A stretch of DNA of 64,000 nt from Nanobdellota archaeon (GCA_038046385.1 JBBSWH010000005.1:64339-128338), one strand, 5' to 3'. Positions 9,533 to 58,057 are shown, counted from the stretch's first letter. Made by a program: numbers and translations. The notes: generated from the sequence alone by a model not told the origin.

Positions 9533-10105
9533 TTAGTTATATTCTGGAATTAATTTTCTATCTATATTTCTAACCTTCCCTATAATCCTTCCATTTTCAT
9601 ATAAACTCAAATTTCTAGATTGTATGGATTGGGTATCACTATCCCACCAAACTAAGCTATCATAATTAATGACGGATTCCTGTCCACTTGTATCTTTCAA
9701 AACCAAATAATTGTCTGTACCGACATTATCTATAAAACAGTCTGGCTTGATTCCTATATAACTCTTGATAACATTGAACTTCATTCCTGATGGAACTTTT
9801 TTGAGATGAATGGTGTTATCAACAAAGGCGAACTCAGAAAGGTTATAATAATATAAGGATCTATTAATTCTTTGCTCAGTTTTTGCTCCAGGAAGGGTTA
9901 TTAGTCCCTCAAAATAAAAAACAGGATCGTCAAAAGATAGTGTTCTTCCTTTCAAAAACTCTGGTAAAGAAATTGTTTTTTCTTTTATTTGGCAATGCCC
10001 GAAAAACGAAAACCATAAAAAAATCTTGCTAGAAATATAGATAATCCAAGATATTGAGATAATCACTATTAAAATAATTAATATCCATTTGATTATTTTA
10101 TTCAC
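9533..10105 (-). CDS. Hypothetical N-terminally membrane-anchored protein
   Basis: 190 aa with a hydrophobic N-terminus. Lies between the two 95-nt repeat copies. Confidence 0.5.
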   Translation of the reverse strand: MNKIIKWILIILIVIISISWIIYISSKIFLWFSFFGHCQIKEKTISLPEFLKGRTLSFDDPVFYFEGLITLPGAKTEQRINRSLYYYNLSEFAFVDNTIHLKKVPSGMKFNVIKSYIGIKPDCFIDNVGTDNYLVLKDTSGQESVINYDSLVWWDSDTQSIQSRNLSLYENGRIIGKVRNIDRKLIPEYN

Positions 10106-14670: not shown

Positions 14671-15072
14671 ATGGGAGTAGCAACAGAGCTGGAAAAGGGC
14701 AAGTATTTTCTTCACAACAACGAGCCTATGAGGGTTACAAGAAAAGAGGTTGTTGCTGTCGGAACGCATTCACACACCAAGCTCAAGATTTTCTATCAGG
14801 GAGTTGAAGGCAGGGGAGAAAAAACAATCATACTGGGGCATACTGATAAAGTAGATATTTTGGACATAACAAGAAAACAGGGACAAGTGATATCAAAAAA
14901 CAACGACAAGGTGCAGATAATGGATCTTGTTTCGTATGAAGTGATGGAAGCAAAAGCAATTCCTGAAATAATGGATGATTTCAAAGAGGGATTGATTGTG
15001 ACTTTTATAAATTTCAACGGAGACTGCAGGATTGTGGATATAAGGGGAAGCCAGAAAGAAGAACATTCATGA
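14671..15072 (+). CDS. aIF5A-like translation factor (divergent hypusine loop)
   Basis: 133 aa from the internal ATG, because the track ORF start overlaps the tRNA. By-eye alignment to archaeal aIF5A runs along its full length; the loop reads AVGTHSHTKLK versus the usual SPGKHGSAKAR. Confidence 0.7.
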   Translation: MGVATELEKGKYFLHNNEPMRVTRKEVVAVGTHSHTKLKIFYQGVEGRGEKTIILGHTDKVDILDITRKQGQVISKNNDKVQIMDLVSYEVMEAKAIPEIMDDFKEGLIVTFINFNGDCRIVDIRGSQKEEHS

Positions 15073-15560
15073 AAAAAACTAATTCTAAATATATTGTTGT
15101 GAAAAAGTCAAAAATCCACAACAACGGGATTTTTGCAAAGAAAGATGTGCCAAAAGGAATTAAAGTACTGCAATATGTTGGAGAAAAAATAGACAAGACA
15201 GAAGGGGCAAAAAGAGAGGTACTGCAGGATAAGCTTGCAGCAAAAAACAAAAAATACGGAGTTGTTTATGTCTTTGAACTCGATAAGAAATGGGACATTG
15301 ACGGGAGCTTTGAGTACAACACTGCAAAATACATAAACCATTCGTGCAATCCAAACTGCAGGATAAGCATAAAAAACGGGGAGATATGGATAGTGTCAAA
15401 GAGAAGGATAAAAAAAGGGGAAGAGATAACTTATAATTATGGCTATGACTTCGAAGGAGGAGACCATCATGAATGCAAGTGCGGATGCGGCAATTGCGTC
15501 GGGTACATACTTGATGAGGATCACTGGCCAAAGCTGAAAAGGGCTATTAAGGGGCAATAG
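15069..15560 (+). CDS. SET-domain protein lysine methyltransferase
   Basis: NHSCNPNC, ELTYNY-like EITYNYGYD, post-SET CKCGCGNC. ATGA overlap with the upstream stop. Confidence 0.85.
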   Translation: MKKTNSKYIVVKKSKIHNNGIFAKKDVPKGIKVLQYVGEKIDKTEGAKREVLQDKLAAKNKKYGVVYVFELDKKWDIDGSFEYNTAKYINHSCNPNCRISIKNGEIWIVSKRRIKKGEEITYNYGYDFEGGDHHECKCGCGNCVGYILDEDHWPKLKRAIKGQ

Positions 15561-22451: not shown

Positions 22452-22572
22452 AGTTTTTTGATTATTTTCTTTAATATTAATTTTTAATTATATTTTATTG
22501 AATTTTATTTTTTAATGTTGTTCGTTATTGATTTTTTGTTAATGTGTTTCGTTTATTGAGTCGTTTTTATTT

Positions 22573-22617
22573 TTCCGTCCCTTCGGGACAAAAGTTACGC
22601 TCGCTGCATTGCTCGCC
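22573..22617 (+). repeat. Two-hairpin intergenic repeat, copy R1 (degenerate second hairpin)
   Basis: TTCCGT + GTCCC-TTC-GGGAC + ACA..GCTCGCTGCATTGCTCGCC, then an AT-rich TATTAATTGTAAAAA flank. Confidence 0.6.
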
Positions 22618-22669
22618 TATTAATTGTAAAAATGTAGAATTATTTCTATGCTCTAAATAAAAAAATTGG

Positions 22670-22777
22670 GGCTCGTTGCCGAGCCACCGCTTGCCTTCGT
22701 CATTAAAACGTTGGGGGTGGTTTTCTTAACGAAGGCAAAGAAACAATCTCACCACAAAGACTTGTGGGTGAATGTGA
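22670..22777. other. GC-rich nested hairpins abutting the ftsZ stop
   Basis: GGCTCG-TTGC-CGAGCC (22670-22685); TTGCCTTCGT (22691-22700) pairs with ACGAAGGCAA (22729-22738); CACAA-AGAC-TTGTG within CTCACC/GGTGA..GAG. Confidence 0.4.
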
Positions 22778-22781
22778 GTTT

Positions 22782-25455: not shown

Positions 25456-25642
25456 CCACTGGACATCCCTGCCTAAGATATTTAAACTAATTCTTCGTCT
25501 TAAACTGAAAAAGAGAACACGCAAAACTGCCAAATTAAGCCTTTTGATTACATCAAAATCCTTTTACGCAGTTTCGCTTAACATTCTCTTTTTCCTGAAT
25601 TCCAAAGTTCCAAAAGGTTAGAAACTTTGGAGGTTGATTAAA

Positions 25643-26353
25643 ATGATACAGAAAACGAAAGAAGAGTATTTGAAAGAACATAAGAATTGGGGCAGTATTA
25701 AACTTATCAATTTTCCCGAAAAGAATGAAAGATTGGCAGAGCTTGTCGGCATAATTCTTGGTGATGGTAACCTACATGTTTATACAAAAGGTAGTAATGT
25801 GGGAACTTATTCTTTAAGAATAGCTGGAAATTACATAAAAGATCATGAATATCTTACAAATTATGTGGCTAGTTTGTGCAAAGACTTGTTTATGGTTAAG
25901 CCTAGGACATACAAACAGCCAAATGTAAATTGCATTTATCTTATAATTGATGGTAGGCTAATTATAGATTTTTTAATTGAGATTGGATTAAAAAGCGGCA
26001 ACAAAATAAAAAGTCAAGTTACAATACCCGATTGGATTATGGAAAATAATGAATATCTTAAATCATGCATAAGGGGATTGATAGATACCGATGGCTGCGT
26101 TTATGAAATGCTGCCTCATTGGCCAGGCTTGTTCCAGATTAATTTTGAGAACAGAAACATAACTTTGTTGAGAGATACAAGAGAGGCTTTGATAAAGCTA
26201 GGCTATCACCCTTCTAAAATTTGTGGCAATAGAACGCAATTCGGAACTAAAATTTATATCTCTCGAAAGGAAGAAATCAAAAGATTTTATAAAGAGATTG
26301 GGTCTAGCAACGATAGGAATATAAAACAATTCACTAAAGTGTTTAACTCATAG
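25643..26353 (+). CDS. Free-standing LAGLIDADG homing-endonuclease-like protein
   Basis: Two LAGLIDADG motifs (LAELVGIILGDGNL; IRGLIDTDGCV). GGAGG SD 9 nt before the ATG at 25643. The stop overlaps tRNA-Gln by 2 nt. Confidence 0.8.
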   Translation: MIQKTKEEYLKEHKNWGSIKLINFPEKNERLAELVGIILGDGNLHVYTKGSNVGTYSLRIAGNYIKDHEYLTNYVASLCKDLFMVKPRTYKQPNVNCIYLIIDGRLIIDFLIEIGLKSGNKIKSQVTIPDWIMENNEYLKSCIRGLIDTDGCVYEMLPHWPGLFQINFENRNITLLRDTREALIKLGYHPSKICGNRTQFGTKIYISRKEEIKRFYKEIGSSNDRNIKQFTKVFNS

Positions 26354-26506: not shown

Positions 26507-26878
26507 ATGTCCGTTATAATCAAGAAATCAAAAATACAGGGGAAAGGTGTATTTGCTGGTTCTAACTTTAGAAAAGGAGATGTTGTGATGAAATGGGATG
26601 CTTCCATGATGTTAAGCAAAAAGGAAGCCAAAAAAGTACCTATTCGATATAGGAAATATCTTGTGCTTTACAAAGGGAAGTTTATAGTATCGCAGTCTCC
26701 TGAAAAATATCTTAATCATTCCTGTAATCCGAATACAAAGGAAGGAAATCTCTGCGATATTGCGATTAGAAGCATAAAAAGGGGAGAAGAACTTACAACA
26801 GACTATTCGATTGATGCTAAAGATTACCTTAAAATGAAGTGCAACTGCAAAAGTGAGAAGTGCAAGAAGATAGTGTGA
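26507..26878 (+). CDS. SET-domain methyltransferase (second copy, short)
   Basis: NHSCNPNT, ELTTDY, post-SET-like CNCKSEKC. Confidence 0.8.
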   Translation: MSVIIKKSKIQGKGVFAGSNFRKGDVVMKWDASMMLSKKEAKKVPIRYRKYLVLYKGKFIVSQSPEKYLNHSCNPNTKEGNLCDIAIRSIKRGEELTTDYSIDAKDYLKMKCNCKSEKCKKIV

Positions 26879-29130: not shown

Positions 29131-29586
29131 ATGGCAAGAATGTATTCAAGGAAGCACGGAAAGTCAGGGTCAAAGAAGCCTGCAAAGAAGGTAAATCCGT
29201 CATGGACAAGATACAAGGGAAAGGAAGTTGAGCTTCTTATCGGAAAGCTTTACAAGGAAGGAAAGCCAGCATCACAGATTGGACTATTATTAAGAGATAC
29301 TTACGGAATACCAAGCGTAAGAACACTGTGCGGCAAGTCAATTCACGCAATTCTTGAGGAAAAGAAAATGGTTGCTGAAATTCCTGAAGATTTACAGGCT
29401 ATGTTCAAGAAATACGCGCTTGTGAAGAAGCACATTGTCACAAACAAGAAAGACCAGACTGCTGCTAGAGGATTAAACATAACAGCCTCAAAAATAAACA
29501 AGCTTGTAAAATATTACAAGAGAAAAGGCAGAATGGCAGAGACGTGGAAGTTCGACGCTGACAGAATGGGATTCTTCGCGGAATAA
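29131..29586 (+). CDS. rps15: Ribosomal protein uS15 (S15/S13e)
   Basis: MARMYSRKHGKSGSKKP N-terminus; archaeal length. Confidence 0.9.
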   Translation: MARMYSRKHGKSGSKKPAKKVNPSWTRYKGKEVELLIGKLYKEGKPASQIGLLLRDTYGIPSVRTLCGKSIHAILEEKKMVAEIPEDLQAMFKKYALVKKHIVTNKKDQTAARGLNITASKINKLVKYYKRKGRMAETWKFDADRMGFFAE

Positions 29587-29611: not shown

Positions 29612-30088
29612 ATGTCAAGATCAAAGGCAAGTGAACATGGAAAATATTTAAGATTGGCTTACTTTAGAAGCATAGACGGCGCTGTGACCCATTCAGGCAT
29701 GGTAAATGATGGCAATTTTGAAGGCTTGCCGCAAGAATTCTTTGCCCAGTTGTCTGAAAAAGGATTTGGATTCAGAAGCCTTGACGGCCAGCTTTATTCT
29801 GGGTTGGGCACACAAAGAATGTTTGATGAAGTTGCGTCTGTCCCTTCTGCTTCAATAGGCGGCCTTGAAGTCAGGACAATAAATGGGTTTAACATATTCC
29901 ATAGCCAAAAAAATGATGCGACTTTGATTGTGATAACCAAAGATGGAGTGAATTATGTGCTGCTAAATGCAGATTTCGGGCACGGGCCAGAGACTTGCGC
30001 AGTCATGGCAGACAAGCCTACTTATTCACAACCACTTTTGCTTCATCAGGTTTTGAAAAGAGTATATAACTCAAAAACTAAGAGTTAG
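29612..30088 (+). CDS. Hypothetical protein
   Basis: 158-aa ORF; no motif recognised. Confidence 0.45.
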   Translation: MSRSKASEHGKYLRLAYFRSIDGAVTHSGMVNDGNFEGLPQEFFAQLSEKGFGFRSLDGQLYSGLGTQRMFDEVASVPSASIGGLEVRTINGFNIFHSQKNDATLIVITKDGVNYVLLNADFGHGPETCAVMADKPTYSQPLLLHQVLKRVYNSKTKS

Positions 30089-30746
30089 CCATTTCCTTTA
30101 TTTTTCCGTATTCTTTCAAACTTGATAACGTCAAATCTGCTGTTTTTTGAAGCTCCTGCAAAGTGCAGCTTCCGGTTGCGACTCCAACAGCAAATGCGCC
30201 TGATTTTTTTGCAGCTTCGATGTCATATGCAGTATCTCCAATGACAATAATTTTTCCGAAATCGTATTTCATTGATTTTGCCCGTTCTATTGCTCTTTGG
30301 ACTATCTGAGCCCTTGTGCTTAATCCGTCGTCAAAGCTCGAAACGTCAAAATATTTTGACAATCCGGATTTTTCGAGTATGAGCCTTGCAATTCCTTCCA
30401 TGTTGCCGGAAACAACGCCTGCAAAATGGCCTGCTGAGCGGATTGCTTCAAGAAAATCAAGAACGCCTTCAAGCGGCTCCACAGGGTGCTGGCCAAGCAC
30501 TTTTGCAAAGTTAGAAGGATGAAGCTGCATCAGCCTCTGTGCAACTGCGTTGTCATAATTAATGCTTAATTCCCTGAAAATCTGCCTGTGCATGCTTGAG
30601 TCAGGCATGCCGAATGTCTTTGTTATCATATAGTCTGGCACGTTTATTTTCATAACGTCGTAATAATCGTACTTGTATGAAGCAAGATGCAGCTTGTTTA
30701 TGTTCACAAGCGTTCCGTCAATGTCGAATAAGTAAAGGGTTTTCAT
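30078..30746 (-). CDS. HAD-superfamily phosphatase
   Basis: LFDIDGTLV (DxDxT), SGN, GDTAYD. 1-nt gap to ispH. Confidence 0.8.
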   Translation of the reverse strand: MKTLYLFDIDGTLVNINKLHLASYKYDYYDVMKINVPDYMITKTFGMPDSSMHRQIFRELSINYDNAVAQRLMQLHPSNFAKVLGQHPVEPLEGVLDFLEAIRSAGHFAGVVSGNMEGIARLILEKSGLSKYFDVSSFDDGLSTRAQIVQRAIERAKSMKYDFGKIIVIGDTAYDIEAAKKSGAFAVGVATGSCTLQELQKTADLTLSSLKEYGKIKEMANS

Positions 30747-30747
30747 T

Positions 30748-31677
30748 TTAAGAATTTGTTATTTCTTTTATTCTTTCAACAACTTCATCAATAAGATAAT
30801 CCGGTGTTGATGCGCCTGCTGTGACTCCGATTTTTTCTTTTCTGGCAAACCATCCTTTCTGCAATTGGCCTTGAGACTGGATGAAATAAGACTGGACGCC
30901 GAACTCTTTGCATTTTGTATGGAGTTCTTTTGAATTTGAAGAATTCAAGCCGCCGATTACAATTACAACGTCGCTTTCCTTGGCAAGGTCTTCTGTATCT
31001 GATTGCCTTTGTTTTGTGGGATTGCATATTGTGTCAACCCATGCGTATTTTGCATTTGTTTCCTTCATGCTCAAAGGGATATTCTCAAACTTTCCGCTTT
31101 TCATCTTTGAGTTTGTTTCATCAATCAGCTTCTTGTAGCCGTAGACCGACATTGTTGTCTGCGATATTATAGCATACTTGCCGTATTCTGCCTTATTGAT
31201 GAAATCAACAATCCTGTCAGAGTCTTCTGCATGCTCCACAATGAATGTGTCTTTGCCTTTTAGATGATAAGATGTGCCGATTGATTCCGGATGGTCGTGC
31301 TTTCCAAAGATTATGACTTCGTAGCCTGCATTCTTCAATTTTATTGCAACATTATGCACCAAAGTGACTAGAGGGCAGGTTGCATCGTTCAGGTTATTGC
31401 TTTTAGTAATTGATTTCTGCTCAAGAATCTGGTAAGTTGTTCCTGGTTCGCCATGAGCTCTAAGAACAGTGACTGCGTTTTGGGGGATTTCGCTTATGCT
31501 GTCAACAAAAACAATTCCCTTGCCTTCAAGGTCGTTGATAACCCTTTCATTGTGCACAAGCTGGCCAAGAACATATGTTTTTTCTGTATTTTTTCCTGCA
31601 ACTTCCTCTGCAATCTCTATTGCTTTCTTCACTCCAAAACAGAAGCCTGCGTGCTTTGCTACTTTTATGGTTGGCAT
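30748..31677 (-). CDS. ispH: 4-hydroxy-3-methylbut-2-enyl diphosphate reductase
   Basis: HAGFCFGV, LVHN, TICNPT motifs. Confidence 0.9.
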   Translation of the reverse strand: MPTIKVAKHAGFCFGVKKAIEIAEEVAGKNTEKTYVLGQLVHNERVINDLEGKGIVFVDSISEIPQNAVTVLRAHGEPGTTYQILEQKSITKSNNLNDATCPLVTLVHNVAIKLKNAGYEVIIFGKHDHPESIGTSYHLKGKDTFIVEHAEDSDRIVDFINKAEYGKYAIISQTTMSVYGYKKLIDETNSKMKSGKFENIPLSMKETNAKYAWVDTICNPTKQRQSDTEDLAKESDVVIVIGGLNSSNSKELHTKCKEFGVQSYFIQSQGQLQKGWFARKEKIGVTAGASTPDYLIDEVVERIKEITNS

Positions 31678-31807
31678 TTTTTATTTAGGGTTTAATTTTA
31701 AATTATTTTATTATATTTTTATTATTTTGATATTTTTTAGTTTATTGAATTTTTTTATTTATTGATATTCGTTAATGTGTTATTAATTTGTTTTATTAAA
31801 AATTTAT

Positions 31808-31859
31808 TTCCGTCCTTCGGACAAACTCTTGTGCTCGCTGGCACCATAACCAGCTCGCC
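31808..31859 (+). repeat. Two-hairpin intergenic repeat, copy R2
   Basis: TTCCGT + GTCC-TTC-GGAC + ACA..GCTC-GCTGG-CACCATAA-CCAGC-TCGC. The 26 nt at 31833-31858 are identical to 36249-36274. Confidence 0.75.
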
Positions 31860-31895
31860 AAATATTATAATATGCACCCACCCCTGAATGCTTAA

Positions 31896-32744
31896 CTATA
31901 CTGTTTTTGTCAAGAAGACAAATGGATAATCGTACTGCATCTTGAAAAATGCTTCCCTTGCCTCGTAAATGCTGTTGAAAATTGCAAAAACTGTCGGGCC
32001 TGAGCCGGAAACGCATGCGTTTAATGCATCGTTTCTCATCAAATTTGATTTTATGTCGTTTAGCGCCTTGTATTTTTTTGTTACAATAGTGTCAAAATCA
32101 TTATGGAGGTTTTTTGCGATTGCCTTTATGTCCTTCCTTTCCATTGCCTTAATAAGCTCATTTATATCTGCGTTAGTTTTTATTTTAGGCTTCTCCTTGT
32201 CAAATGCAGCATAAGCCCATTTTGTAGAAACACGGAATCCTGGATTTATGAGAACGATGTTGATGCTGAAAGCCTTTTTTATTCTTTTTATCTTGTCGCC
32301 AATGCCCTCAACCAATGCAGCCTGGTCTTCAATAAAAAATGGAACATCTGAGCCAATATGAGATGCTATGTCTATGAGCTGTTTTTCCTTCAGTTTAAGG
32401 CTCCACATTTTATTAAGATGCATCAGGGCAGTTGCTGCGTTGCTTGACCCTCCGCCAAGGCCGGCTTCAAGCGGTATGTTTTTCTCGAGAAATATCTTGA
32501 CACCGTGTTTTACCTTGTATTTTTTCTTTAAAATTATAGCTGCCTTGTAAGCAAGGTTTTCTTCGCTTGCCAGCTCCGGGCTGGTGCTTTCTATTATAAC
32601 TCTGTCTTCGTTTATCGGCTCAAAATGGATTGTATCGCTCAATTCGATGCGCTGCATTACAGACTGTATGTTATGGTATCCAGAGCCAAGCCTTTTGCCT
32701 ATCTTGAGGAAAAGGTTGATTTTTGCATAGGAATTGATTGCCAT
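31896..32744 (-). CDS. ispE: 4-diphosphocytidyl-2-C-methyl-D-erythritol kinase
   Basis: AKINLFL, GLGGGSSNAA GHMP motif. Confidence 0.9.
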   Translation of the reverse strand: MAINSYAKINLFLKIGKRLGSGYHNIQSVMQRIELSDTIHFEPINEDRVIIESTSPELASEENLAYKAAIILKKKYKVKHGVKIFLEKNIPLEAGLGGGSSNAATALMHLNKMWSLKLKEKQLIDIASHIGSDVPFFIEDQAALVEGIGDKIKRIKKAFSINIVLINPGFRVSTKWAYAAFDKEKPKIKTNADINELIKAMERKDIKAIAKNLHNDFDTIVTKKYKALNDIKSNLMRNDALNACVSGSGPTVFAIFNSIYEAREAFFKMQYDYPFVFLTKTV

Positions 32745-32809
32745 ATAGGTCTGGATGCCTTTTTCCTATATTAATATTTGCTAATTTAAAGTGCCATAAT
32801 AAGCAATTT

Positions 32810-33955
32810 TTAGCTCAAGCTGACTGTAACAAAGCACTGCATGCCCTTGCCAAGTCCAAAAGAGCTTAATCTTTCCCCTGAAGTATAAGAAATCCCTATT
32901 TTGCCTTCATTTAAGCCTAAGATTTTTGACAATGATGATTTTATCTTTTCTGTATGCGGCTCAAGCTTTGGTTTTCCTGCCTCTATCATTATGCTTATAT
33001 TGTTTATTGACAGATTCTTCTGCTTCATTTTTTCCAGAATGGCTTCAAGATATTTTTTGCTGTCGGTTATTCCTTTTTTGAACATGCTGTCTGCATAATA
33101 ACCAAGTCCCCTTTCTCCAATTGCAGAGCTTATTGCATTAAAGAGTGCATGCAGGATGATATCTCCATCTGAATTTGCCTCGAATCCGGGTTCGTTTATT
33201 TTATATCCGCCAAGAACCAGTTTTTTGTTTTTATTACTTGTGAAATGATGGCTGTCCTGGCCAAATCCAATTCTGAAATCTGACATTATTTTTTTTGCCA
33301 TGGCAAAATCATTCGGAGTAGTAATCTTGAAATTTTCATAGGAACATTCAACGATTTTTACTTTTTTGTTGAGAGCTTCAACAAGCGATACGTCGTCTGT
33401 TGCAATTATTTTTTTGTTTCTTGCGTTCTTGTATGCTTCTGTAAATAACCCATATTGGATACACTGCGGAGTCTGCATCTGCCAGACATCTTTTCTGCTG
33501 ATTGTCTCTGATGCAAAATTGCCTTTTGTTCTTTTGATTGTGTCCTTTAATCTGAATGCTGCTGCAGACGCTCCGTGTTTTTTTGCAGCTGCAATGCAAT
33601 TTTTTATCTCTTCATCTTTTACAAGGGGATTGCTGCCGTTATGCACGAGAATTATATCTCTGCTTTTGGCTTTTTTTATCGACATTAATCCGTTATAGAC
33701 TGAATCCTGGCGCTCTTTTCCGCCTTCAACTATATTTTTTATTTTGCCGAGAGTATGCTGTTTTTTTATTTCATTTATTTTTTTGAAATTGATTTTTTGA
33801 GAAACTACGGCTATTTCATCTATTGCGCTGCAGCTCTGGAATTTTTCCAGTGTATGCGCAAGTATCGGCTTATTGTTTATCTCGAGAAAAACTTTATTTG
33901 TGTTGCTGTTCATTCGCTTTCCTTTTCCTGCTGCGACGATTATTGCGAAGTTCAT
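32810..33955 (-). CDS. ispDF: Bifunctional IspD cytidylyltransferase / IspF cyclodiphosphate synthase
   Basis: N-domain IIVAAGKGKRM. C-domain GFGQDSHHF..NSDGDIILHAL. Confidence 0.9.
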   Translation of the reverse strand: MNFAIIVAAGKGKRMNSNTNKVFLEINNKPILAHTLEKFQSCSAIDEIAVVSQKINFKKINEIKKQHTLGKIKNIVEGGKERQDSVYNGLMSIKKAKSRDIILVHNGSNPLVKDEEIKNCIAAAKKHGASAAAFRLKDTIKRTKGNFASETISRKDVWQMQTPQCIQYGLFTEAYKNARNKKIIATDDVSLVEALNKKVKIVECSYENFKITTPNDFAMAKKIMSDFRIGFGQDSHHFTSNKNKKLVLGGYKINEPGFEANSDGDIILHALFNAISSAIGERGLGYYADSMFKKGITDSKKYLEAILEKMKQKNLSINNISIMIEAGKPKLEPHTEKIKSSLSKILGLNEGKIGISYTSGERLSSFGLGKGMQCFVTVSLS

Positions 33956-33963
33956 TTTAGAGA

Positions 33964-35124
33964 TTAATTTTTTATTTGTATTTCTTCTTCAATTGTTTTT
34001 TTTGTTTCTTCCTTTGTTTTTCTGTCCGTTTCCAGTATATCCTTCAGGCTTGGATTTTTTATAGTATTGTGACTGTCCATTGCTTTTTTTATCAGCCTTG
34101 CAATGTCCAAAAACTTTATTTTGTTATCAAGAAATGCATGAACTGCTATTTCATTTGCGGCGTTCATCACGCAAGGCAAAGTTCCTCCGATGTTTCCTGC
34201 TTCGTATGCATATTTTAAGCACGGAAATCTTTCCAAATCTGGCTCCCAGAATTCCAAATTTTTTATCTCTTCCAAATTCAATGATTTCTGCATGCTTGAA
34301 AATCTTTTTGGATATGACAATGCATACTGTATCGGGGTTTTCATGTCCGGCATTCCCAATTGCGCAATTACGGACTTGTCATGAAACTCTACAAGGGAAT
34401 GTATTATGCTCTGCGGATGAATTACAACTTTTATTTTATCGTATTCTATATTGTAAAGCCAGTGCGCTTCAATAACTTCAAATCCCTTATTCATCCACGT
34501 CGCACTATCAATTGTGATTTTTGCGCCCATGCTCCAAGTAGGGTGCTTTAATGCATCTTTTGCATTCACATTTTCCAACTGCTCTTTTGTATGTTTTTTG
34601 AAAGGGCCTCCGGAACATGTGATTGTTATTTTCTCAACTTCATTTATTCTTTCTCCATTTAAGCACTGGAAGATTGCAGAATGTTCAGAATCAATCGGCA
34701 TCAAATTAATTTGATTTTTTTTTGCTTCCCCCATTATTATCGAGCCTGCTGCCACCAACGTTTCTTTGTTTGCCAGTGCAATATTCTTCTTTGCCCTTAT
34801 TGCGTTGTACGTCGGCTCAACTCCAATCGATCCTACAAGAGAGTTTATGACTGTGTCTGCTTCCTGCATTGTGGCTATCTTGTTCAATCCCTCAATCCCC
34901 GAATAAACTTGGCACGGAGAGAAGTTAAGCAAATCATCAACCTTGCTTTTGTCCATTATCGCAACTGCTTTTGGCTTAAACTCTTTTATCTGTTTCAGAA
35001 GAAGCTCATGGTTTTTGTTTGATGATAATCCAACAATTTTGAATTCATTCGGGAATTGCCTTACAATATCCAGAGTTTGAGTGCCGATGCTTCCGGTTGA
35101 TCCTAAAATAGAAATGTGTTTCAT
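33964..35124 (-). CDS. dxr: 1-deoxy-D-xylulose 5-phosphate reductoisomerase
   Basis: ILGSTGSIGTQTLD, LANKE, DSEHSAIFQC. Confidence 0.9.
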   Translation of the reverse strand: MKHISILGSTGSIGTQTLDIVRQFPNEFKIVGLSSNKNHELLLKQIKEFKPKAVAIMDKSKVDDLLNFSPCQVYSGIEGLNKIATMQEADTVINSLVGSIGVEPTYNAIRAKKNIALANKETLVAAGSIIMGEAKKNQINLMPIDSEHSAIFQCLNGERINEVEKITITCSGGPFKKHTKEQLENVNAKDALKHPTWSMGAKITIDSATWMNKGFEVIEAHWLYNIEYDKIKVVIHPQSIIHSLVEFHDKSVIAQLGMPDMKTPIQYALSYPKRFSSMQKSLNLEEIKNLEFWEPDLERFPCLKYAYEAGNIGGTLPCVMNAANEIAVHAFLDNKIKFLDIARLIKKAMDSHNTIKNPSLKDILETDRKTKEETKKTIEEEIQIKN

Positions 35125-36191
35125 CTTTCCTGTGCAATCTCTTTAATCTCCTTCAGAAGAACTTCCATGATTTCGCTGTCGTTTATCCTTCTGACTATTT
35201 TTCCATGCTTGTACAGCAGGTGATTTCCCGGTGCGCCAACAATTCCAAGGTCTGCTTTTTTGCTTTCTCCCGGGCCGTTTACAGCGCAGCCCATTATCGC
35301 AATATGAACCGGCTTTTTCATCTTTTCTGTTGCGCCTTCAAGCTGTTCAACAAGCTTTATGACATCAACTTCTGTTCTTGCGCACGTCGGGCAGGATGTG
35401 ATTTGAACGCCGTCGTTTCTTAATCCCAATGATCTTAAAATGTATTTTGCTGTTTTTATTTCTTCTTTTGGATCTTCAGACAATGAAACACGTATTGTGT
35501 CGCCGATGCCTTCTGAAAGCAGCATTCCCATTCCCATTGCAGATTTTATTGCGCCAGGCAATTTTGATCCTGCTTCTGTAACACCAAGATGCAAAGGATA
35601 ATCTGTTTTTGCTGCAAACATCCTGTATGCCTGCACCATCCTTGGAACATCTGAAGCTTTCAATGAAACAATTGTATTGTAAAAATCCAAATCCTCAAGA
35701 ATTTTTATGTGGCGCATTGCGCTTTCTACCATCGCTTCTGCCTTGTAACCATATTTTTCAAACAAATCGCGCTCAAGAGATCCAAGGTTAACTCCGATTC
35801 TTATCGGAACTCCATAATCTTTGCATGCCTTAACAACCTGCTGCACCTTGTCAGTGTTTCCGATGTTTCCTGGATTTATGCGTACTTTGTCAACGTACTT
35901 TACTGCTTCCAATGCAATCCTGTAGTCAAAATGAATATCGACAACAAGAGGGATGCTGATGTTTTCCCTTATTTCCTTCAGAGCTTTTGCAGCTTCCATT
36001 GTCGGAGCAGAAACTCTTACTATGTCGCAGCCGATCTCTTCCAATCCGTGAATCTGTTCAATTGTTGCCTTTGCATCAACAGTATCTGTTGTGGTCATTG
36101 ACTGGATTGGTATCGGTGCATCTCCACCGATGAACAGTTTTCCGACTTTTACTTTGCGGGATTTCCTTCTGATGATGGTGTCTTGAATCAT
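35121..36191 (-). CDS. ispG: HMBPP synthase (GcpE)
   Basis: PIQSMTTTDT, RINPGN, CPTCART, MGCAVNGPGE. Confidence 0.9.
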   Translation of the reverse strand: MIQDTIIRRKSRKVKVGKLFIGGDAPIPIQSMTTTDTVDAKATIEQIHGLEEIGCDIVRVSAPTMEAAKALKEIRENISIPLVVDIHFDYRIALEAVKYVDKVRINPGNIGNTDKVQQVVKACKDYGVPIRIGVNLGSLERDLFEKYGYKAEAMVESAMRHIKILEDLDFYNTIVSLKASDVPRMVQAYRMFAAKTDYPLHLGVTEAGSKLPGAIKSAMGMGMLLSEGIGDTIRVSLSEDPKEEIKTAKYILRSLGLRNDGVQITSCPTCARTEVDVIKLVEQLEGATEKMKKPVHIAIMGCAVNGPGESKKADLGIVGAPGNHLLYKHGKIVRRINDSEIMEVLLKEIKEIAQER

Positions 36192-36223
36192 TTTATTTGT
36201 AGTTTATTTATTTTAAAATTTAA

Positions 36224-36274
36224 TTCCGTGCTTCGCACAGACTTTACAGCTCGCTGGCACCATAACCAGCTCGC
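36224..36274 (+). repeat. Two-hairpin intergenic repeat, copy R3
   Basis: TTCCGT + GTGC-TTC-GCAC + ACA..GCTC-GCTGG-CACCATAA-CCAGC-TCGC, followed by AAATTAATTATAAA. Confidence 0.75.
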
Positions 36275-36298
36275 AAATTAATTATAAAGATTATAAAA

Positions 36299-38281
36299 CT
36301 ATTTTGCTAAAAACTCCGAGATTGATTTTTTTATTCCGTCTTTATCTATTCCTATAAGTTTTTTCTGAATATCCGGTCTTCCGTGCTCGATGAATTCATC
36401 AGGGATTCCAACCATCTTCAGCTCTGATTTTATTCCGTTTTTCTCCAATAGTTCAAGAACTGCGCTTCCAAATCCTCCTGTTACGGTTGATTCCTCAAGT
36501 GTTATTATTTTCTTGAATTTTTTAGCGTATGCTATAATTGTTTTTTCATCGAGAGGCTTTACAAATCTTGCATTTATTATTGAAGCATTGCAGCCAAGCT
36601 CTTCTGATGCCCTCATCGCGTCATAAAGTATCTGGCCTACTCCAATTATCAGTATGTCTTTTCCCTTTTTCATTATTTCAGCTTTTCCAATCTCAAACTT
36701 TTTCATTTCCTGGTCGATTGCAACTCCGACTCCGTTTCCCCTAGGATATCTTATTGCACTCGGTCCATTTATGAGTGTGGCTGTGTAGAGCATGTGCTGC
36801 AGCTCATTCTCGTCTTTTGGAACCATTATTGTCATGTTAGGTATTATTCTCAAGAATGCTGTGTCAAATGGTCCGTTGTGCGTCGGGCCATCATCTCCAA
36901 CCAATCCTGCGCGATCCATTGCAAAAATAACAGGCAATTTTTGAAGTGCAACATCGTGGATTATCATGTCATATGCTCTCTGCAAAAATGTAGAATAGAT
37001 TGCGCACACCGGCTTCATTCCGCTTATTGCGAGGCCTGCTGCAAATGTGACTGCGTGCTGCTCCGCGATTCCAACATCAATTGTCCTTTCCGGGAAAAAT
37101 TTCTCAAATTTATTTAATCCTGTGCCTGATTTCATCGCGGCCGTTATTGCAACGATTTTTTCGTCGTTTGCGGCAACTTTTATCATTGCATTTGCAAAAG
37201 CGTCTGTGTAAGTTATGATATTGCTTTTTGCCGGATGTTTTTTTCCTGATTCGATGTCGAACGGGCTCATGCCGTGGCACTTATCGATGTCCTCGTTTGC
37301 AAATTTGAATCCTTTTCCTTTTTCTGTTTTTACGTGCAGTAGCACCGGCCCTTCCAGATTTTTTATGTTTTGCAAAGCAGGTATAAGTTCGTTAAGGTTG
37401 TGGCCGTCAATAGGCCCGTAGTACTGAAACCCTAAACTTTCAAAGAATGATCCTTCGCTTGTGATTGTTCTTAATCGCTCCTGCACCTTGAAAACCCTTC
37501 CAAGCTCCTCTTCACCCATGCCCGGAATTCTTTCAAGAAGATTTCTTGTTCCCTTCCTTAGCTTGAAGTAGCTTTTATTGAGCACAATCCTGTTAAGATA
37601 GTTTGAAATTGCCCCTACGTTCGGAGAAATACTCATGCGATTGTCATTCAATATTACAAGCATACTTGTTTTCAGGTATCCTGTATTGTTTAAGCCTTCA
37701 AAAGCAAGCCCTGCTGTAAGAGCGCCGTCGCCAATGATTGCAACAACCTTGTGATTTTCTTTTTTGTAATCGCGCGCTTTTGCCATTCCCAAAGCTGCAG
37801 AAATTGAAGTTGAAGCGTGGCCTGCGCCAAAGGAGTCATATTCTGATTCAAAAATATTGCAAAACCCGCATACCCCCTTATACTGCCTTAACGTATGGAA
37901 CTTGTCTTTTCTTCCTGTCACAAGCTTGTGAGTATAGCTCTGATGGCCCGTATCAATCACTATCTTATCCTTTGGGGTATTGAAAACATAATGAACAGCA
38001 AGTGTTAATTCTACTGTTCCTAATGGACCGCCCAAGTGACCGCCGGTTTGAGAGACTGTGTCTATGATTTTGTCCCTGATGTTTTGTGCAAGAATTGGAA
38101 GTTCTTCTACCTTTAATTTCTTAAGGTCTTTTGGAGAGTTTACCTTGTTGAGGAGGTTTATTTTAATCTTTGAGGATTGATTAGGGATTACCTGCAATTG
38201 CTCAGCAATAAGATTACTCTGAGACTTCTTAGATGAAAGCAATTTGTTTAAAGGCTTTTTTTTACTCATCACACACCCCAA
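36299..38281 (-). CDS. dxs: 1-deoxy-D-xylulose-5-phosphate synthase
   Basis: GGHLGGPLG, DTGHQSYTHK, IGDGALT and transketolase-like C-domains. Start may be the ATG at 38269. Confidence 0.9.
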   Translation of the reverse strand: MGCVMSKKKPLNKLLSSKKSQSNLIAEQLQVIPNQSSKIKINLLNKVNSPKDLKKLKVEELPILAQNIRDKIIDTVSQTGGHLGGPLGTVELTLAVHYVFNTPKDKIVIDTGHQSYTHKLVTGRKDKFHTLRQYKGVCGFCNIFESEYDSFGAGHASTSISAALGMAKARDYKKENHKVVAIIGDGALTAGLAFEGLNNTGYLKTSMLVILNDNRMSISPNVGAISNYLNRIVLNKSYFKLRKGTRNLLERIPGMGEEELGRVFKVQERLRTITSEGSFFESLGFQYYGPIDGHNLNELIPALQNIKNLEGPVLLHVKTEKGKGFKFANEDIDKCHGMSPFDIESGKKHPAKSNIITYTDAFANAMIKVAANDEKIVAITAAMKSGTGLNKFEKFFPERTIDVGIAEQHAVTFAAGLAISGMKPVCAIYSTFLQRAYDMIIHDVALQKLPVIFAMDRAGLVGDDGPTHNGPFDTAFLRIIPNMTIMVPKDENELQHMLYTATLINGPSAIRYPRGNGVGVAIDQEMKKFEIGKAEIMKKGKDILIIGVGQILYDAMRASEELGCNASIINARFVKPLDEKTIIAYAKKFKKIITLEESTVTGGFGSAVLELLEKNGIKSELKMVGIPDEFIEHGRPDIQKKLIGIDKDGIKKSISEFLAK

Positions 38282-38351
38282 GACATGAAGTTTAATTATG
38301 ATTTATAAAGGTTATGGAAGATGAAAATTTGCTGGGATTTGGCTTCGTTTC

Positions 38352-38466
38352 GGTTAGCATCGGCTCAGGCTATCTGTATTCTTAAATTAGTTGGCATCCC
38401 CGTAAGGGACTTCCCCCTGCCAACTTATCTACATTAGTAAAATGCCTTCGCATATTGATGCTAACC
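38352..38466. other. Closed multi-hairpin element in the dxs / L1 divergent spacer
   Basis: 10-bp closing stem GGTTAGCATC (38352-38361) / GATGCTAACC (38457-38466). Inner GTTGGCA..TGCCAAC stem enclosing TCCC-CGTAA-GGGA. Confidence 0.5.
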
Positions 38467-38563
38467 TTCAAATTAATGCATAAAATGAACCATAACCTTT
38501 TTAAATGGCCCAAATATCCTAAAGCTTACCCGTTAACTTAACTGTTTCGACAGGAGGGAAAAG

Positions 38564-39244
38564 ATGGAAAAAGAACAAATTCAATCAGCATTAACAAAAG
38601 CCAAAGACATTTCTGGCAAGAGGAATTTCAAGCAGACATACGACTTAATCATAAATCTAAAGGGCTTGGACTTAAAGAAGCCAGAGCACCAAGTTGATTT
38701 ATTCATAGCATTGCCCCATCAAAGAGGCAAGAAAGTAAGCATATGCGCGCTTGTTGGCCCTGAAATGGAGCAGTCTGCAAAGGCAGCATTTGACATGGCA
38801 ATTTCTTCAGATAATTTCGTCAAATACAGCGACAAGAAAGAAATCAAAAAACTTGCAAACTCCTATGACTTTTTCGTTGCTCAGGCAAATATAATGGGAA
38901 AGATAGCAACAGCTTTCGGACGTGTTTTTGGTCCAAGAGGAAAAATGCCGAATCCAAAATCAGGGGGAGTATTTCCGCCAAATGCTAATTTGAAGCCATT
39001 GCAAGAAAAATTGCAAATGACAATAAGAGTTTCTGCAAAGACATCTCCATTGATCCAGTGCCCAATAGGGATGGAAGATATGAAGATGGAACATTTAACA
39101 GATAATGCAATGACAATCTATAATGCAATACTTCACGCACTTCCAAACGAGAAGCACAACATAAAAGACGCTTACATCAAGCTTACAATGGGCAAGCCGG
39201 TAAAGCTTGGAGAAAAACTAGAGGCTGTAAAGGAGCACAAGTAA
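38564..39244 (+). CDS. rpl1: Ribosomal protein uL1
   Basis: AGGAGG SD; typical L1 sequence (NFKQTYDLIINLKG, MPNPKSG). Confidence 0.95.
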   Translation: MEKEQIQSALTKAKDISGKRNFKQTYDLIINLKGLDLKKPEHQVDLFIALPHQRGKKVSICALVGPEMEQSAKAAFDMAISSDNFVKYSDKKEIKKLANSYDFFVAQANIMGKIATAFGRVFGPRGKMPNPKSGGVFPPNANLKPLQEKLQMTIRVSAKTSPLIQCPIGMEDMKMEHLTDNAMTIYNAILHALPNEKHNIKDAYIKLTMGKPVKLGEKLEAVKEHK

Positions 39245-39245
39245 A

Positions 39246-40103
39246 ATGGAACAGGCTCACGTTGCGGAATACAAGAAAGAGATTGTAACCAGCCTAGTCA
39301 AACTCATAAACCAGTACCCTATAGTCGGAATTGTAAATATGGAAAACTTGCCAGCGCCACAGCTGCAGGCAATGAGGGCCCAATTAAGAGGCAACTTCCA
39401 CCTTACAATGACCAAGAGAAGGCTGATAAAACTTGCATTTGAACAGGCAAAATCGACAAAAAAGGGAATCGAGCAGCTTGAAAACCATCTTGGCGGAATG
39501 CCGGCTTTGATATTTACAAAAGAAAATCCATTCAAATTAAGCAGAACCTTGCAAAGAAGCAAGTCACCTGCGCCTGCAAAAGCAGGGCAGACTGCTCCAA
39601 GGGATATCGTAGTCCAGAAGGGATCAACTTCATTCGCACCTGGCCCAATCATAGGAGAGCTTGCAATGGCAGGCATTAAATCAGGAGTTGAAGGCGGAAA
39701 AGTTGCAATCAAAGAAGATTCCATAGTGGCAAGAGCTGGCGAGAAAATCAAGCCAAAGGTTGCAGAAATATTAACGAGACTTGGTGTACAGCCAATGGAA
39801 GTCGGCCTTGATCTTGTTGCTGTTTACGAAAACGGCATAATTTACGGAAGAGATATACTGTCGGTTGATGAGAAAGAGTACAAGCTGAGATTAAACAACG
39901 CAGCAAGATGGTCATTCAACCTTGCAGTATTCGCAGCATATCCTACAAAGTTAACAATCCCAGTTTTAATAGGAAAGGCAAGCAACGAAGCCAAAGCGGT
40001 TGGAGTTGAGGCCAAGATATTGGAAAAGGGAATAATAGAAACGCTTGTTGGAAAAGCTGACGCGCAAATGAAGAGCGTCAAGTCAACGGCAAACTTAGAG
40101 TAA
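39246..40103 (+). CDS. rplP0: Ribosomal stalk protein uL10 (P0)
   Basis: Position after L1, 285 aa, P0-like N-domain. Confidence 0.9.
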   Translation: MEQAHVAEYKKEIVTSLVKLINQYPIVGIVNMENLPAPQLQAMRAQLRGNFHLTMTKRRLIKLAFEQAKSTKKGIEQLENHLGGMPALIFTKENPFKLSRTLQRSKSPAPAKAGQTAPRDIVVQKGSTSFAPGPIIGELAMAGIKSGVEGGKVAIKEDSIVARAGEKIKPKVAEILTRLGVQPMEVGLDLVAVYENGIIYGRDILSVDEKEYKLRLNNAARWSFNLAVFAAYPTKLTIPVLIGKASNEAKAVGVEAKILEKGIIETLVGKADAQMKSVKSTANLE

Positions 40104-40126
40104 TCATAACTATTAAAATAATTTAA

Positions 40127-40222
40127 TTCCGTCGCCCACGAAAATCATTGATTTTCGGGGCCCAGAAAATTTATAATTTTCTTGGGCTTCGCGACAAAAA
40201 TTAGGCGGCCCACATTGGCCGC
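40127..40222 (+). repeat. Two-hairpin intergenic repeat, copy R4, with two extra hairpins nested in hairpin 1
   Basis: TTCCGT + GTCGC[CCACGAAAATCATTGATTTTCGGGG + CCCAGAAAATTTATAATTTTCTTGGG]CTTC-GCGAC + ACA..GCGGCC-CACATT-GGCCGC + AAATATATAAA. Confidence 0.7.
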
Positions 40223-40258
40223 AAATATATAAATTAAGTTAACTAGGAGGTAAACAAA

Positions 40259-40570
40259 ATGGAATACGTGTATGCAGCAATGTTGCTTCACAAAGCAGGG
40301 CAGAAAGTTGAAGAAGCTTCTGTAAAGAAAGTGCTAGAGGCAGCCCACGTCAAAGTTGACGAGGCAAGAGCTAAGGCATTAGTAGCAGCTTTGGAAGGAG
40401 TCAACATAGAAGAAGCTATAGAAAAAGCAGCAGTTGCACAGGTTGCAGCAGCACCAGCAGCATCCGGAGAGCACAAGCACGAAGGAAAGGCTGACCACAA
40501 CAAAAAAGCAGCAGAAGAGAAGAAATCAGAAGAATCTGCAGCAGCTGGTCTTGGCGCTTTGTTCGGATAA
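40259..40570 (+). CDS. rpl12: Ribosomal stalk protein P1 (L12)
   Basis: [12 protein letters not shown]-terminus, Ala-rich hinge, acidic GLGALFG tail; AGGAGGT SD. Confidence 0.9.
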
Positions 40571-46928: not shown

Positions 46929-47279
46929 TTGCAGGGTTAGTACTTAGCTTCGGCGCATGAAAAGGCTCGAAAGGGCTTATTCTGCTGAGGAAAGTCCGCC
47001 CACCATAAAAGGCCACTCGCACAAGCGAGTTTTGGAGACAGAAGGCAACCACTCAGAAACGAGACCGCTGCATCTAAGGGTGAAGCTCGCGAAGGCTCCT
47101 GTGAAGGAGCTGAGAACAGCTGACGTTTATGCAGAATGGATGAAACGGTGAGTCCTGGCCGGTGCAAGTCCGCGAACAAGCAATTGTTCCAGTACGCTTA
47201 GTTTAATGCTAAGACAGGCTATCGCATTATCAATAATGCACAAGGGCCTGACAAAAGGCGGCTTATTCTGGCCCTGCAA
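46929..47279 (+). ncRNA. rnpB: RNase P RNA
   Basis: CR-I GAGGAAAGTCCGCCC (46987-47001), CR-V ACAAAAGGCGGCTTA (47251-47265), P1 pairing TTGCAGGG/CCCTGCAA at the ends. Confidence 0.85.
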
Positions 47280-56791: not shown

Positions 56792-57742
56792 ATGAACTCG
56801 CTTAGAAATCAAAAAATTTGTTTGAAAGAATTATCAAAAAAATCGCTGATTTCAATGTATTCCGAAAGAGGGTTATCAACATCAGCAATTGCAAGAGTTT
56901 ACAATTGCAATCCAGAAACTGTGCGTAGAATTATGATTAAACATAAAATTGCTAGGAGAAGGCTACATGAAAGAAAATATAAAATTAAAAAAGAGGAGTT
57001 AGAAATATTATATCTTAAAGAAAAAAAGTCAACAATTGAAATTGCTAAAAAATATAATTGCTCCCAATGGGTTATTTGGTCTTTACTCAAGAAGTATAGG
57101 ATTAATGCACGAGGTGCTAATGAATATCATTCGTGGAAATCTCCTTCAAATCAAATTAAGCCAGTTTTAGATGAGTCTCCTACATTAGCCTATGCTGTTG
57201 GAGTGATTTTAGGAGATGGTTGGACTTACAAAAGAGGGCATTTTTATACTATAGGCTTAGAAGTGTCAGATAAAAAATTTTGTGAGAGCTTCCATGTGGC
57301 TTTAAAGAAGCTAAACCTAAACCCCTCTATGTTTCATAGCAGAGGCTACTGGAGAACTGTATGCTCTTCAAAATTGTTTTATCTATGGCTTGAATCTTTA
57401 GATATAAATCATATAAATAAAATATCCAAAAAATATCCTGAGGATTTCCTAAGGGGATTTTATGAGAGTGAAGGTCATCTTTCTGTTTACAAAAGCAAGG
57501 AGTATTATTTCACAAGAACAAGCATAATTATCTGCAACACTAAAAAAGAATGGATGTACTTAATCAAAAGCCTATTAGAAAGTCTGGATTTTCATCCTAA
57601 AATCTATAATATAGCTAGCCAAAAACCCAAATGGAAACCTTTATGGAGGCTGGTTTTAGCAAGAAACTTAGAAGCTAAAAGATTTATTAGCTTGGTAAAA
57701 CCTTGTATTAAAATTGGAGAAAAAAGACGTCGAAACCTTTAA
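56792..57742 (+). CDS. LAGLIDADG homing-endonuclease-like protein with N-terminal HTH repeats
   Basis: Two HTH units (LSTSAIARVYNC.., KSTIEIAKKYNC..) followed by LAYAVGVILGDGW and FLRGFYESEGHL. Confidence 0.75.
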   Translation: MNSLRNQKICLKELSKKSLISMYSERGLSTSAIARVYNCNPETVRRIMIKHKIARRRLHERKYKIKKEELEILYLKEKKSTIEIAKKYNCSQWVIWSLLKKYRINARGANEYHSWKSPSNQIKPVLDESPTLAYAVGVILGDGWTYKRGHFYTIGLEVSDKKFCESFHVALKKLNLNPSMFHSRGYWRTVCSSKLFYLWLESLDINHINKISKKYPEDFLRGFYESEGHLSVYKSKEYYFTRTSIIICNTKKEWMYLIKSLLESLDFHPKIYNIASQKPKWKPLWRLVLARNLEAKRFISLVKPCIKIGEKRRRNL

Positions 57743-57966: not shown

Positions 57967-57995
57967 GTTGTTTTAATTTTTCTAAAAATTTAATT

Positions 57996-58038
57996 TCCGT
58001 GGCTTCGCCACAACAGATACGCGCCCCGCATTGGGCGC
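57996..58038 (+). repeat. Two-hairpin intergenic repeat, copy R5
   Basis: TTCCGT + GTGGC-TTC-GCCAC + ACA..GCGCCC-CGCATT-GGGCGC + AAATTTATTATAAAA. Confidence 0.7.
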
Positions 58039-58057
58039 AAATTTATTATAAAATTTA

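Follow-up and report, generated by a model that had tools for sequence, protein, structure and literature searches.

A predicted intact MEP pathway gene cluster of bacterial type and probably ancient origin in a window of a Woesearchaeota genome

Archaea of the DPANN group have repeatedly been reported to carry genes of the bacterial pathway via 1-deoxy-D-xylulose 5-phosphate and 2-C-methyl-D-erythritol 4-phosphate (the MEP/DOXP pathway). Castelle & Banfield 2018 is cited in PMC8204110 and PMC8421398 as the first report of a MEP cluster in Woesearchaeota, and Castelle et al. 2021 (PMC8204110) described 52 Woesearchaeota genomes which form a monophyletic clade and in which the MEP genes are co-located. 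Huang et al. 2021 (PMC8421398) reported that Woesearchaeota possess no other route to isoprenoid precursors than the MEP pathway, which is confined to the subgroups F and J; ispD and ispF are fused in most members of subgroup J, and the gain of the genes was placed at a single ancestral node. Hoshino & Gaucher 2018 (PMC6107057) found MEP enzymes in a few DPANN archaea and proposed a donor from the FCB group. Later papers repeated or extended the observation (PMC10936187 and PMC12892359), the latter for Micrarchaeota. In this study, a stretch of 64,000 nucleotides deposited as Nanobdellota archaeon (GCA_038046385.1, JBBSWH010000005.1:64339-128338), referred to as the window, was analysed with respect to a cluster of six MEP genes in its central part.

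With a probability of about 0.9 in our estimate, the window originates from a Woesearchaeota genome which carries an intact bacterial-type MEP/DOXP pathway that was gained anciently and has been inherited vertically. The clade-wide arrangement of the MEP genes has been known since 2018 and the sequence is deposited and named; the cluster is therefore not a discovery. A preceding reading of the window, made from the nucleotide sequence by itself (the sequence-only reading), had implied that the arrangement was new. This is not supported, as the clustered arrangement has already been published for relatives, a case in which that reading itself gave up the novelty and kept the annotation; the annotation stands.

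Like the loci of the Woesearchaeota MEP clade, this one belongs to a DPANN host, contains the complete bacterial MEP pathway in co-located genes, has ispD fused to ispF and would have been gained from bacteria by an ancestor. Nothing essential differs between them; the window is more compact and has in addition a gene for a HAD-family hydrolase and an open reading frame (ORF) of 158 amino acids (aa) between ispH and uS15. With the bacterial MEP pathways of E. coli, Bacillus and Aquifex it shares the seven activities (predicted here), the same domain architectures and the catalytic and cofactor residues, and a fusion of ispD and ispF is also known in bacteria (PDB 1w55 and 8xhu). In contrast to the bacterial systems, the host is an archaeon, the six genes form one colinear cluster, and Dxr is at most 54% identical to bacterial representatives. 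The MEP genes of model bacteria are dispersed. In the Micrarchaeota orders described in PMC12892359, which are likewise DPANN archaea, a bacterial MEP pathway was also acquired horizontally; however, those archaea keep the mevalonate pathway and lipid synthases, whereas Woesearchaeota are reported to possess the MEP pathway only and to be without geranylgeranylglyceryl phosphate synthase (GGGPS) and digeranylgeranylglyceryl phosphate synthase (DGGGPS; PMC8421398).

Genes of the MEP cluster

Genes were identified by profile scans with NCBIfam and Pfam, and the bit scores were compared to the curated equivalog cut-offs. All seven activities of the pathway (Dxs, Dxr, IspD, IspE, IspF, IspG and IspH) are encoded; each gene or domain scored above its equivalog cut-off with full-length coverage, and the Pfam results agree. 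In this pathway, Dxs forms 1-deoxy-D-xylulose 5-phosphate (DXP) from pyruvate and glyceraldehyde-3-phosphate, and DXP is reduced and isomerised to MEP by Dxr. Subsequently, IspD adds cytidine monophosphate (CMP), the resulting 4-diphosphocytidyl-2-C-methyl-D-erythritol (CDP-ME) is phosphorylated by IspE, and IspF catalyses the cyclisation to 2-C-methyl-D-erythritol 2,4-cyclodiphosphate (MEcPP). The iron-sulfur (Fe-S) enzymes IspG and IspH then convert MEcPP via 4-hydroxy-3-methylbut-2-enyl diphosphate (HMBPP) to isopentenyl diphosphate (IPP) and dimethylallyl diphosphate (DMAPP). The six genes of the cluster are as follows (positions are those of the window):

36299-38269, minus strand: dxs (TIGR00204, 844 bits, cut-off 466)
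35121-36191, minus strand: ispG (gcpE), HMBPP synthase, step 6, a [4Fe-4S] enzyme (NF001540, 497 bits, cut-off 345)
33964-35124, minus strand: dxr, DXP reductoisomerase, step 2 (NF009114, 555 bits, cut-off 461)
32810-33955, minus strand: fused ispD-ispF, MEP cytidylyltransferase (step 3) and MEcPP synthase (step 5) (Pfam IspD and YgbB)
31896-32744, minus strand: ispE, CDP-ME kinase, step 4 (TIGR00154, 246 bits, cut-off 139)
30748-31677, minus strand: ispH (lytB), HMBPP reductase, step 7, with IPP and DMAPP as products (TIGR00216, 255 bits, cut-off 188)

Residue-level alignments to the solved structures 3dnf, 3noy, 6mh4, 5ddt, 7bzx and 8ckh revealed that the catalytic and cofactor residues are intact, namely the Fe-S cysteines of IspG and IspH, the thiamine diphosphate motif of Dxs, the metal site of Dxr and the zinc site of IspF. 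The alignment of Dxs to the PDB structure showed the motifs GGHLG, GDGA..NDN and AEQHA to be kept. IspG was aligned to the Aquifex enzyme (3noy) over 348 residues, with the ligand positions CPTC, GC and GE kept, and in the comparison of Dxr to 6mh4 the motifs GSTGSIG, DSEH and NKGFEVIEA were found. In the fused protein, the IspD domain comprises residues 4-225 (TIGR00453, 225 bits, cut-off 181) and the IspF domain (Pfam YgbB) residues 227-380 (TIGR00151, 143 bits, cut-off 116); the motif AAGKGKRM is present in the former, and the zinc-site motifs DSHHF and SDGD..H were read in the translation of the latter. IspE possesses the lysine, glycine-rich and aspartate motifs AKINLFL, GLGGGSSNAA and GSDVPFF (GHMP motifs), and IspH shares the three cysteine ligands and the HPE motif with the Aquifex enzyme (3dnf). 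As judged by these profile scores and alignments, the six genes of the cluster are not degenerate.

The ORF coordinates of the sequence-only reading hold, its gene assignments are confirmed by these full-length equivalog matches, and the pathway is indeed of bacterial character, as had been claimed there. Degeneracy on alignment, which had been named as a finding that would speak against it, was not observed, as the catalytic and ligand residues are kept. The overlap of 4 nt between ispG and dxr and the gap of 1 nt between ispH and the HAD gene also agree with the coordinates. With regard to dxs, the proposed extent of the ORF (36299-38281) holds, but its start does not: the ORF opens with a TTG at 38281, and the ATG at 38269 is the likelier start, resulting in a protein of 656 aa. 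Upstream of this ATG, GGGGTGTG and a TTTATAAAT box are located, and an independent gene call for dxs likewise gave 656 aa.

Host, conserved position and origin of the cluster

The cluster is located between two sets of ribosomal-protein genes:

29131-29586, plus strand: uS15, left neighbour (Pfam Ribosomal_S13_N and Ribosomal_S15, the former being the archaeal/eukaryotic S13/S15 N-terminal domain)
38564-40570, plus strand: uL1-P0-P1 operon, right neighbour (Pfam Ribosomal_L1; Ribosomal_L10 and RL10P_insert; Ribosomal_60s)
38270-38563, no strand: divergent intergenic region between dxs and uL1, the right-hand junction, with a TATA-like box upstream of dxs

A scan of the species representatives of GTDB (Genome Taxonomy Database) yielded eight archaeal loci (L003-L010), and the window proteins were mapped onto each of them; two further loci, L011 and L012, are bacterial. 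The shared order P1<-P0<-uL1 / dxs>ispG>dxr>ispDF>ispE>ispH / <-uS15 is complete in L003, L005, L006, L009 and L010, and partial in L004, L007 and L008, where the contigs end. The neighbour uS15 is kept in L003, L005, L006, L007, L009 and L010, and the neighbouring uL1-P0-P1 operon in L003, L005, L006, L008, L009 and L010. Dxr of the relatives at the same site is 58-81% identical to that of the window. Across the relatives, the identity values of the MEP proteins and of the ribosomal proteins are divided into two tiers in the same way, with L003-L008 being close and L009 and L010 being distant, as predicted if both were inherited together. Since the cluster occupies the same site in diverged relatives and its identity values track those of the ribosomal proteins, its acquisition most probably predates the clade. 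On this comparative evidence, the ancestor of a sizeable clade of Woesearchaeota already had the cluster at this site, and vertical inheritance followed; the one fixed chromosomal site across the clade, from uL1-P0-P1 to uS15, fits a single ancient insertion. The picture of one reduced archaeon which acquired the pathway, as drawn in the sequence-only reading, is therefore not supported. The fixed site is not stated in the main texts on the clade, and it may be contained in a supplementary table of PMC8204110.

Three of the loci, L004 (CAZLGX010000049.1), L008 (CAZGTJ010000024.1) and L009 (CAYTKI010000003.1), are titled 'uncultured Methanosarcinales archaeon' but bear the MEP cluster of the Woesearchaeota type. 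Ribosomal-protein neighbours similar to those of Woesearchaeota are present in L008 and L009, and L004 ends before the flanks. Going by this gene content, the Methanosarcinales labels of all three look wrong.

The archaeal nature of the flanks, which had been proposed before, is borne out by the domains of uS15 and uL1-P0-P1 and by an archaeal RNase P RNA at 46963-47275 (Rfam, 121 bits). The window also encodes Cdc6/Orc1, FtsZ, Rpo7 and NAC (Pfam scans), seryl- and leucyl-tRNA synthetases, and a ribosomal and polymerase block with the order uS13-uS4-uS11-Rpo3-tRNA-Leu-L18e-uL13-uS9. Dxr of the window is 100% identical to an NCBI protein titled 'MAG ... [Nanoarchaeota archaeon]' (MAG, metagenome-assembled genome), which is encoded on a contig of 302,696 bp and is named as Dxr there. 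The remaining 119 of the 120 best listed Dxr clusters at 90% identity are 76-86% identical to it, and all organism-named ones among them are Woesearchaeota or Nanoarchaeota. A groundwater sample is suggested as the source by the name of an ENA contig (Hain_H52_02um). By protein identity and synteny, on which the clade assignment is based, the host is assigned to groundwater Woesearchaeota (Woesearchaeales; 'Nanoarchaeota' in the NCBI naming).

The occurrence of bacterial-type genes on a contig of this kind could also be explained by a bacterial MEP operon that was misjoined to archaeal ribosomal-protein contigs during assembly or binning, as MAG contigs can be chimeric. However, both junctions were recovered in independent assemblies from different runs: the left junction (ispH-HAD-ORF158-uS15-Band7-ArsP) is present on an independently assembled ENA contig (ERZ1292620), and the right junction (dxs / uL1-P0-P1-DUF7121-epimerase) on the per-run Logan contigs L013 and L014 (ERR3858128 and ERR3858129). 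At least five further species-level genomes, which come from unrelated studies, have the identical junctions. The GC content is flat across the window, without a break at the junctions, and the GC content at third codon positions of the cluster genes (0.37-0.44) cannot be distinguished from that of 51 backbone genes (0.394 +/- 0.05). The synonymous codon fractions of cluster and backbone are correlated with r = 0.958, in comparison to 0.965 +/- 0.015 for random subsets of the backbone; in the comparison of codon usage that had been suggested as a check, the cluster thus matches its flanks. Furthermore, a structured repeat which is distributed over the host sequence is found inside and outside of the cluster (see below). 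The sequence-only reading had relied on this repeat to argue that the contig is not chimeric, and the claim proved correct. The argument from the repeat is valid, yet redundant with synteny; conserved synteny, independent assemblies and codon usage argue against a chimera much more strongly. A chimera is effectively refuted already, and its probability is practically negligible.

To trace the source of the genes, an exhaustive search with Dxr was performed against 1.84 billion cluster representatives (50% clusters). The best representative, labelled Ca. Micrarchaeia, showed 58% identity. The next representatives (51-54%) are mostly unnamed, and the only named ones belong to Paludibacteraceae and Fibrobacterota, both of the FCB group. 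The nearest bacterial representative is at most 54% identical, and no bacterial Dxr with more than 80% identity was found among the 1.84 billion representatives. The closest solved structures are 6mh4 for Dxr (clearly) and 5ddt for IspD, both of which we take to be structures from Firmicutes. A contig of Ca. Peribacteria, a member of the candidate phyla radiation (CPR), contains dxr, a fused ispDF and ispE in the order of the archaeal cluster (L012, positions 87-2951, CAZRWH010000063.1), with identities to the window of 47% for dxr, 33% for ispDF and 32% for ispE. This block bears on the joint transfer of sub-blocks. Naming a donor from the best matches was rejected, as the top 120 listed Dxr clusters are archaeal and the matches outside of the clade reach just 51-54%.

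The compact, colinear and operon-like layout with its 4-nt overlap, together with the matching gene order and the same fusion in Ca. Peribacteria, could be taken to indicate that a bacterial operon entered this genome ready-made by a recent horizontal transfer. Such an event is very improbable, however, considering that even the nearest non-archaeal Dxr is only 51-54% identical, that the codon usage is fully ameliorated, and that the cluster occupies the same site in relatives down to 58% Dxr identity, with a divergence that tracks the ribosomal proteins. A piecemeal origin deserves more weight. According to this explanation, the six genes came to the ancestor of the clade from several bacterial donors and were later consolidated at one locus, without a single transfer en bloc. 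The proposed donors do differ: PMC8421398 places ispD/F nearest to Ca. Nealsonbacteria and dxr and ispG nearest to Firmicutes, PMC6107057 favours bacteria of the FCB group, to which the best named Dxr matches found here (Paludibacteraceae and Fibrobacterota) also belong, while the closest solved structures for Dxr and IspD (6mh4 and 5ddt) would point to Firmicutes, and PMC12892359 infers for Micrarchaeota a history of dxs separate from that of the other genes. At identities of 50% or less, however, matches and trees of single genes are weak, and the conflict between donors may be noise. Every relative that was compared already has the full ordered set at one site, with no intermediate stage, and partial colinear blocks with the ispDF fusion do occur in bacteria, as in L012. 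Altogether, we regard a piecemeal origin as possible, with appreciably less than an even chance.

The explanation preferred here, an ancient gain followed by vertical inheritance, leaves room for more than one step of uptake. Bacterial genes would have been taken up once or in a few steps by an ancestor of the Woesearchaeota clade and would have settled between the uL1-P0-P1 operon and uS15. Since then, the cluster would have been inherited vertically and become fully adapted to the codon usage of the host, and it would supply the C5 isoprenoid precursors instead of the mevalonate pathway. Pfam scans of the window's ORFs with a length of 100 aa or more detected no enzyme of the mevalonate pathway, polyprenyl synthase, GGGPS, DGGGPS or UbiA prenyltransferase. 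The approximately 4 kb past the right end of the window contain no such lipid or mevalonate genes either, only genes resembling toxin-antitoxin systems.

Several points weigh against this explanation. The absence of the mevalonate pathway rests on PMC8421398 and applies to the clade. Neither flavodoxin nor ferredoxin, the reductant partners required by IspG and IspH, was seen in the window. According to PMC8421398, this subgroup lacks the GGGP and DGGGP synthases. Finally, ispG of L006 has an internal deletion by which the CxxC ligands are lost, so that the constraint on the pathway is not uniform in every lineage; this gene may be a pseudogene, or the deletion may be an assembly error.

A bacterial isoprenoid route in an archaeon is relevant to the 'lipid divide' and to the ways in which gene transfer allows DPANN symbionts to patch their metabolism, and for this reason it was highlighted at its first report. 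In this context, the window is a clean, compact and verified example, and the remaining puzzles, the use of IPP and DMAPP and the donor, are the same as in the literature.

The window contains the most compact version of the cluster among the loci compared. In the relatives, unrelated genes interrupt the cluster, for example, those for Acyl_transf_1 (FabD-like) in L007, for a CMAS/UbiE-like methyltransferase and RadC in L006, for a MNT-HEPN pair in L009, and for other methyltransferases and helix-turn-helix (HTH) proteins. The following sites carry interrupting genes or the altered ispG:

L006, 6086-6994
L006, 11170-12027
L007, 9433-10368
L009, 8995-10004

In the window, one further gene directly adjoins the cluster:

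30078-30746, minus strand: HAD-family hydrolase (Pfam HAD_2, 79 bits), 1 nt downstream of ispH

This gene reached no NCBIfam equivalog cut-off; the best match was PpaX with 59 bits in comparison to a cut-off of 218. None of the loci L003-L010 has the gene at this position. A functional tie to the pathway, for example, as a pyrophosphatase, was considered and rejected, as the PpaX match lies under the cut-off and the gene is missing in the relatives. Among the relatives compared, the HAD gene and the 158-aa ORF occur between ispH and uS15 in this organism only. Their distribution marks them as presumable lineage-specific passengers, which belong neither to the pathway nor to the conserved cluster.

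A two-hairpin intergenic element

The sequence-only reading had described a family of intergenic repeats inside the cluster and among ribosomal-protein genes. This family is real, and a fifth copy (22566-22621) was added to it. The copies in the window, designated W1 to W5 and scored with a covariance model, are:

31801-31863, minus strand: W1, in the ispE-ispH spacer (covariance-model match 61 bits; fold z-score -3.4)
36217-36279, minus strand: W2, in the dxs-ispG spacer (covariance-model match 53 bits)
40120-40227, minus strand: W3, in the P0-P1 spacer, with an insertion of approximately 55 nt in hairpin B (25.9 bits, E 5e-7; not used for training; fold z-score -4.8)
57988-58043, minus strand: W4, after rpoN (found first by the descriptor scan; 46.8 bits, in the training set)
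22566-22621, minus strand: W5, in the convergent nitroreductase/ftsZ spacer, with hairpin A shortened (descriptor scan; 47.6 bits)

Nine copies were located in relatives:

L003: 570-647, 662-734, 3446-3497, 15616-15692 and 19591-19665
L004: 2032-2106 and 6768-6845
L005: 13235-13315 and 14778-14864

The element has a length of 55-110 nt and is located just downstream of stop codons. On the minus strand of the window, it reads GGCGAG, stem A (variable), a loop in which UGGMAGAA is frequent, stem A' and CGAGCAC; a spacer of approximately 7 nt, UGU, stem B, GAA, stem B', ACRG and an A/U-rich tail follow. The repeat pair formed by W1 and W2 (31784-31864 and 36200-36280) is 81% identical over 81 nt (BLAST E 7e-10). 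These two are the only copies linked by BLASTN, and MAFFT alone misaligns hairpin A of the five copies. A loose descriptor with long loops was tried and rejected as non-specific (20 matches in comparison to approximately 21 in shuffles); a tight descriptor and the covariance model, which was trained on ten copies, were used instead. The covariance model found new copies in L003 and L005. In L006-L012, including the bacterial loci L011 and L012, no match below E 0.01 was obtained; a weaker match in L008 scored 14.7 bits (E 0.016).

Across 14 copies, the stems covary strongly in an alignment that was fitted to the structure of the model: 91.7% of the cells are paired in comparison to 71.6 +/- 2.5 in shuffled alignments (0 of 500 reached the observed value) and 28-43% with slid partners. 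Eight of the 12 pairs are changed on both sides in this model-fitted alignment. The base of hairpin B is most often formed by a U.G wobble pair, which argues for a preferred strand. The five copies of the window share one orientation. Relative to the MEP genes, L004 and L005 have the copies of their orthologous spacers in inverted orientation, and L003 contains an inverted pair (570-647 and 662-734).

No match at the gathering threshold of Rfam 15 was obtained over the window, and none at E values up to 10 on the W1 spacer. Terminal inverted repeats of the element were not recognised, and no transposase appeared in the Pfam scans of the window. Interpretations as H/ACA RNA, C/D-box RNA, K-turn or bulge-helix-bulge (BHB) motif were rejected by eye, as the defining boxes, pocket or bulges seem to be absent.

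With regard to its genomic behaviour, the element may be of the repetitive extragenic palindrome or bacterial interspersed mosaic element (REP/BIME) type or of the miniature inverted-repeat transposable element (MITE) type, or it may be an independent small RNA. A tentative assignment, which we rate slightly short of even odds, is that to a structured RNA which is strand-specific and undescribed, or else to a mobile hairpin resembling REP elements, in either case specific to a subclade of Woesearchaeales. The element punctuates the acquired MEP cluster and the native ribosomal-protein and RNA-polymerase operons alike; if the assignment is true, a foreign operon would have received intergenic signals of the host type. 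Of everything in the window, this element alone is possibly new, and it represents a modest lead.

Beside W5, downstream of ftsZ, a GC-rich stretch capable of forming hairpins was observed (22669-22780), which has no Rfam match at the gathering threshold.

Further observations in the window

The leucyl-tRNA synthetase (60278-62977) possesses the editing domain PF13603 (227 bits), presumably a domain of bacterial-type leucyl-tRNA synthetases. This enzyme may be encoded by another gene of bacterial origin.

Free-standing LAGLIDADG_3 ORFs were detected at 25634-26353 and 56792-57742. The second one has additional HTH domains and is located between uS9 and rpoN, inside the ribosomal-protein and RNA-polymerase operon. 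Both are likely to be insertions of the homing-endonuclease type.

A direct repeat of 95 nt was found at 9335-9429 and 10137-10231, with copies that are 99% identical and 802 nt apart. It copies the 3' end of a gene for a PIN-KH ATPase (10130-11971) and brackets an ORF without a Pfam match (9533-10105). This region looks like an insertion with target duplication. Additionally, this DPANN archaeon encodes two SET-domain proteins (PF00856) in the window, at 15069-15560 and 26507-26878.

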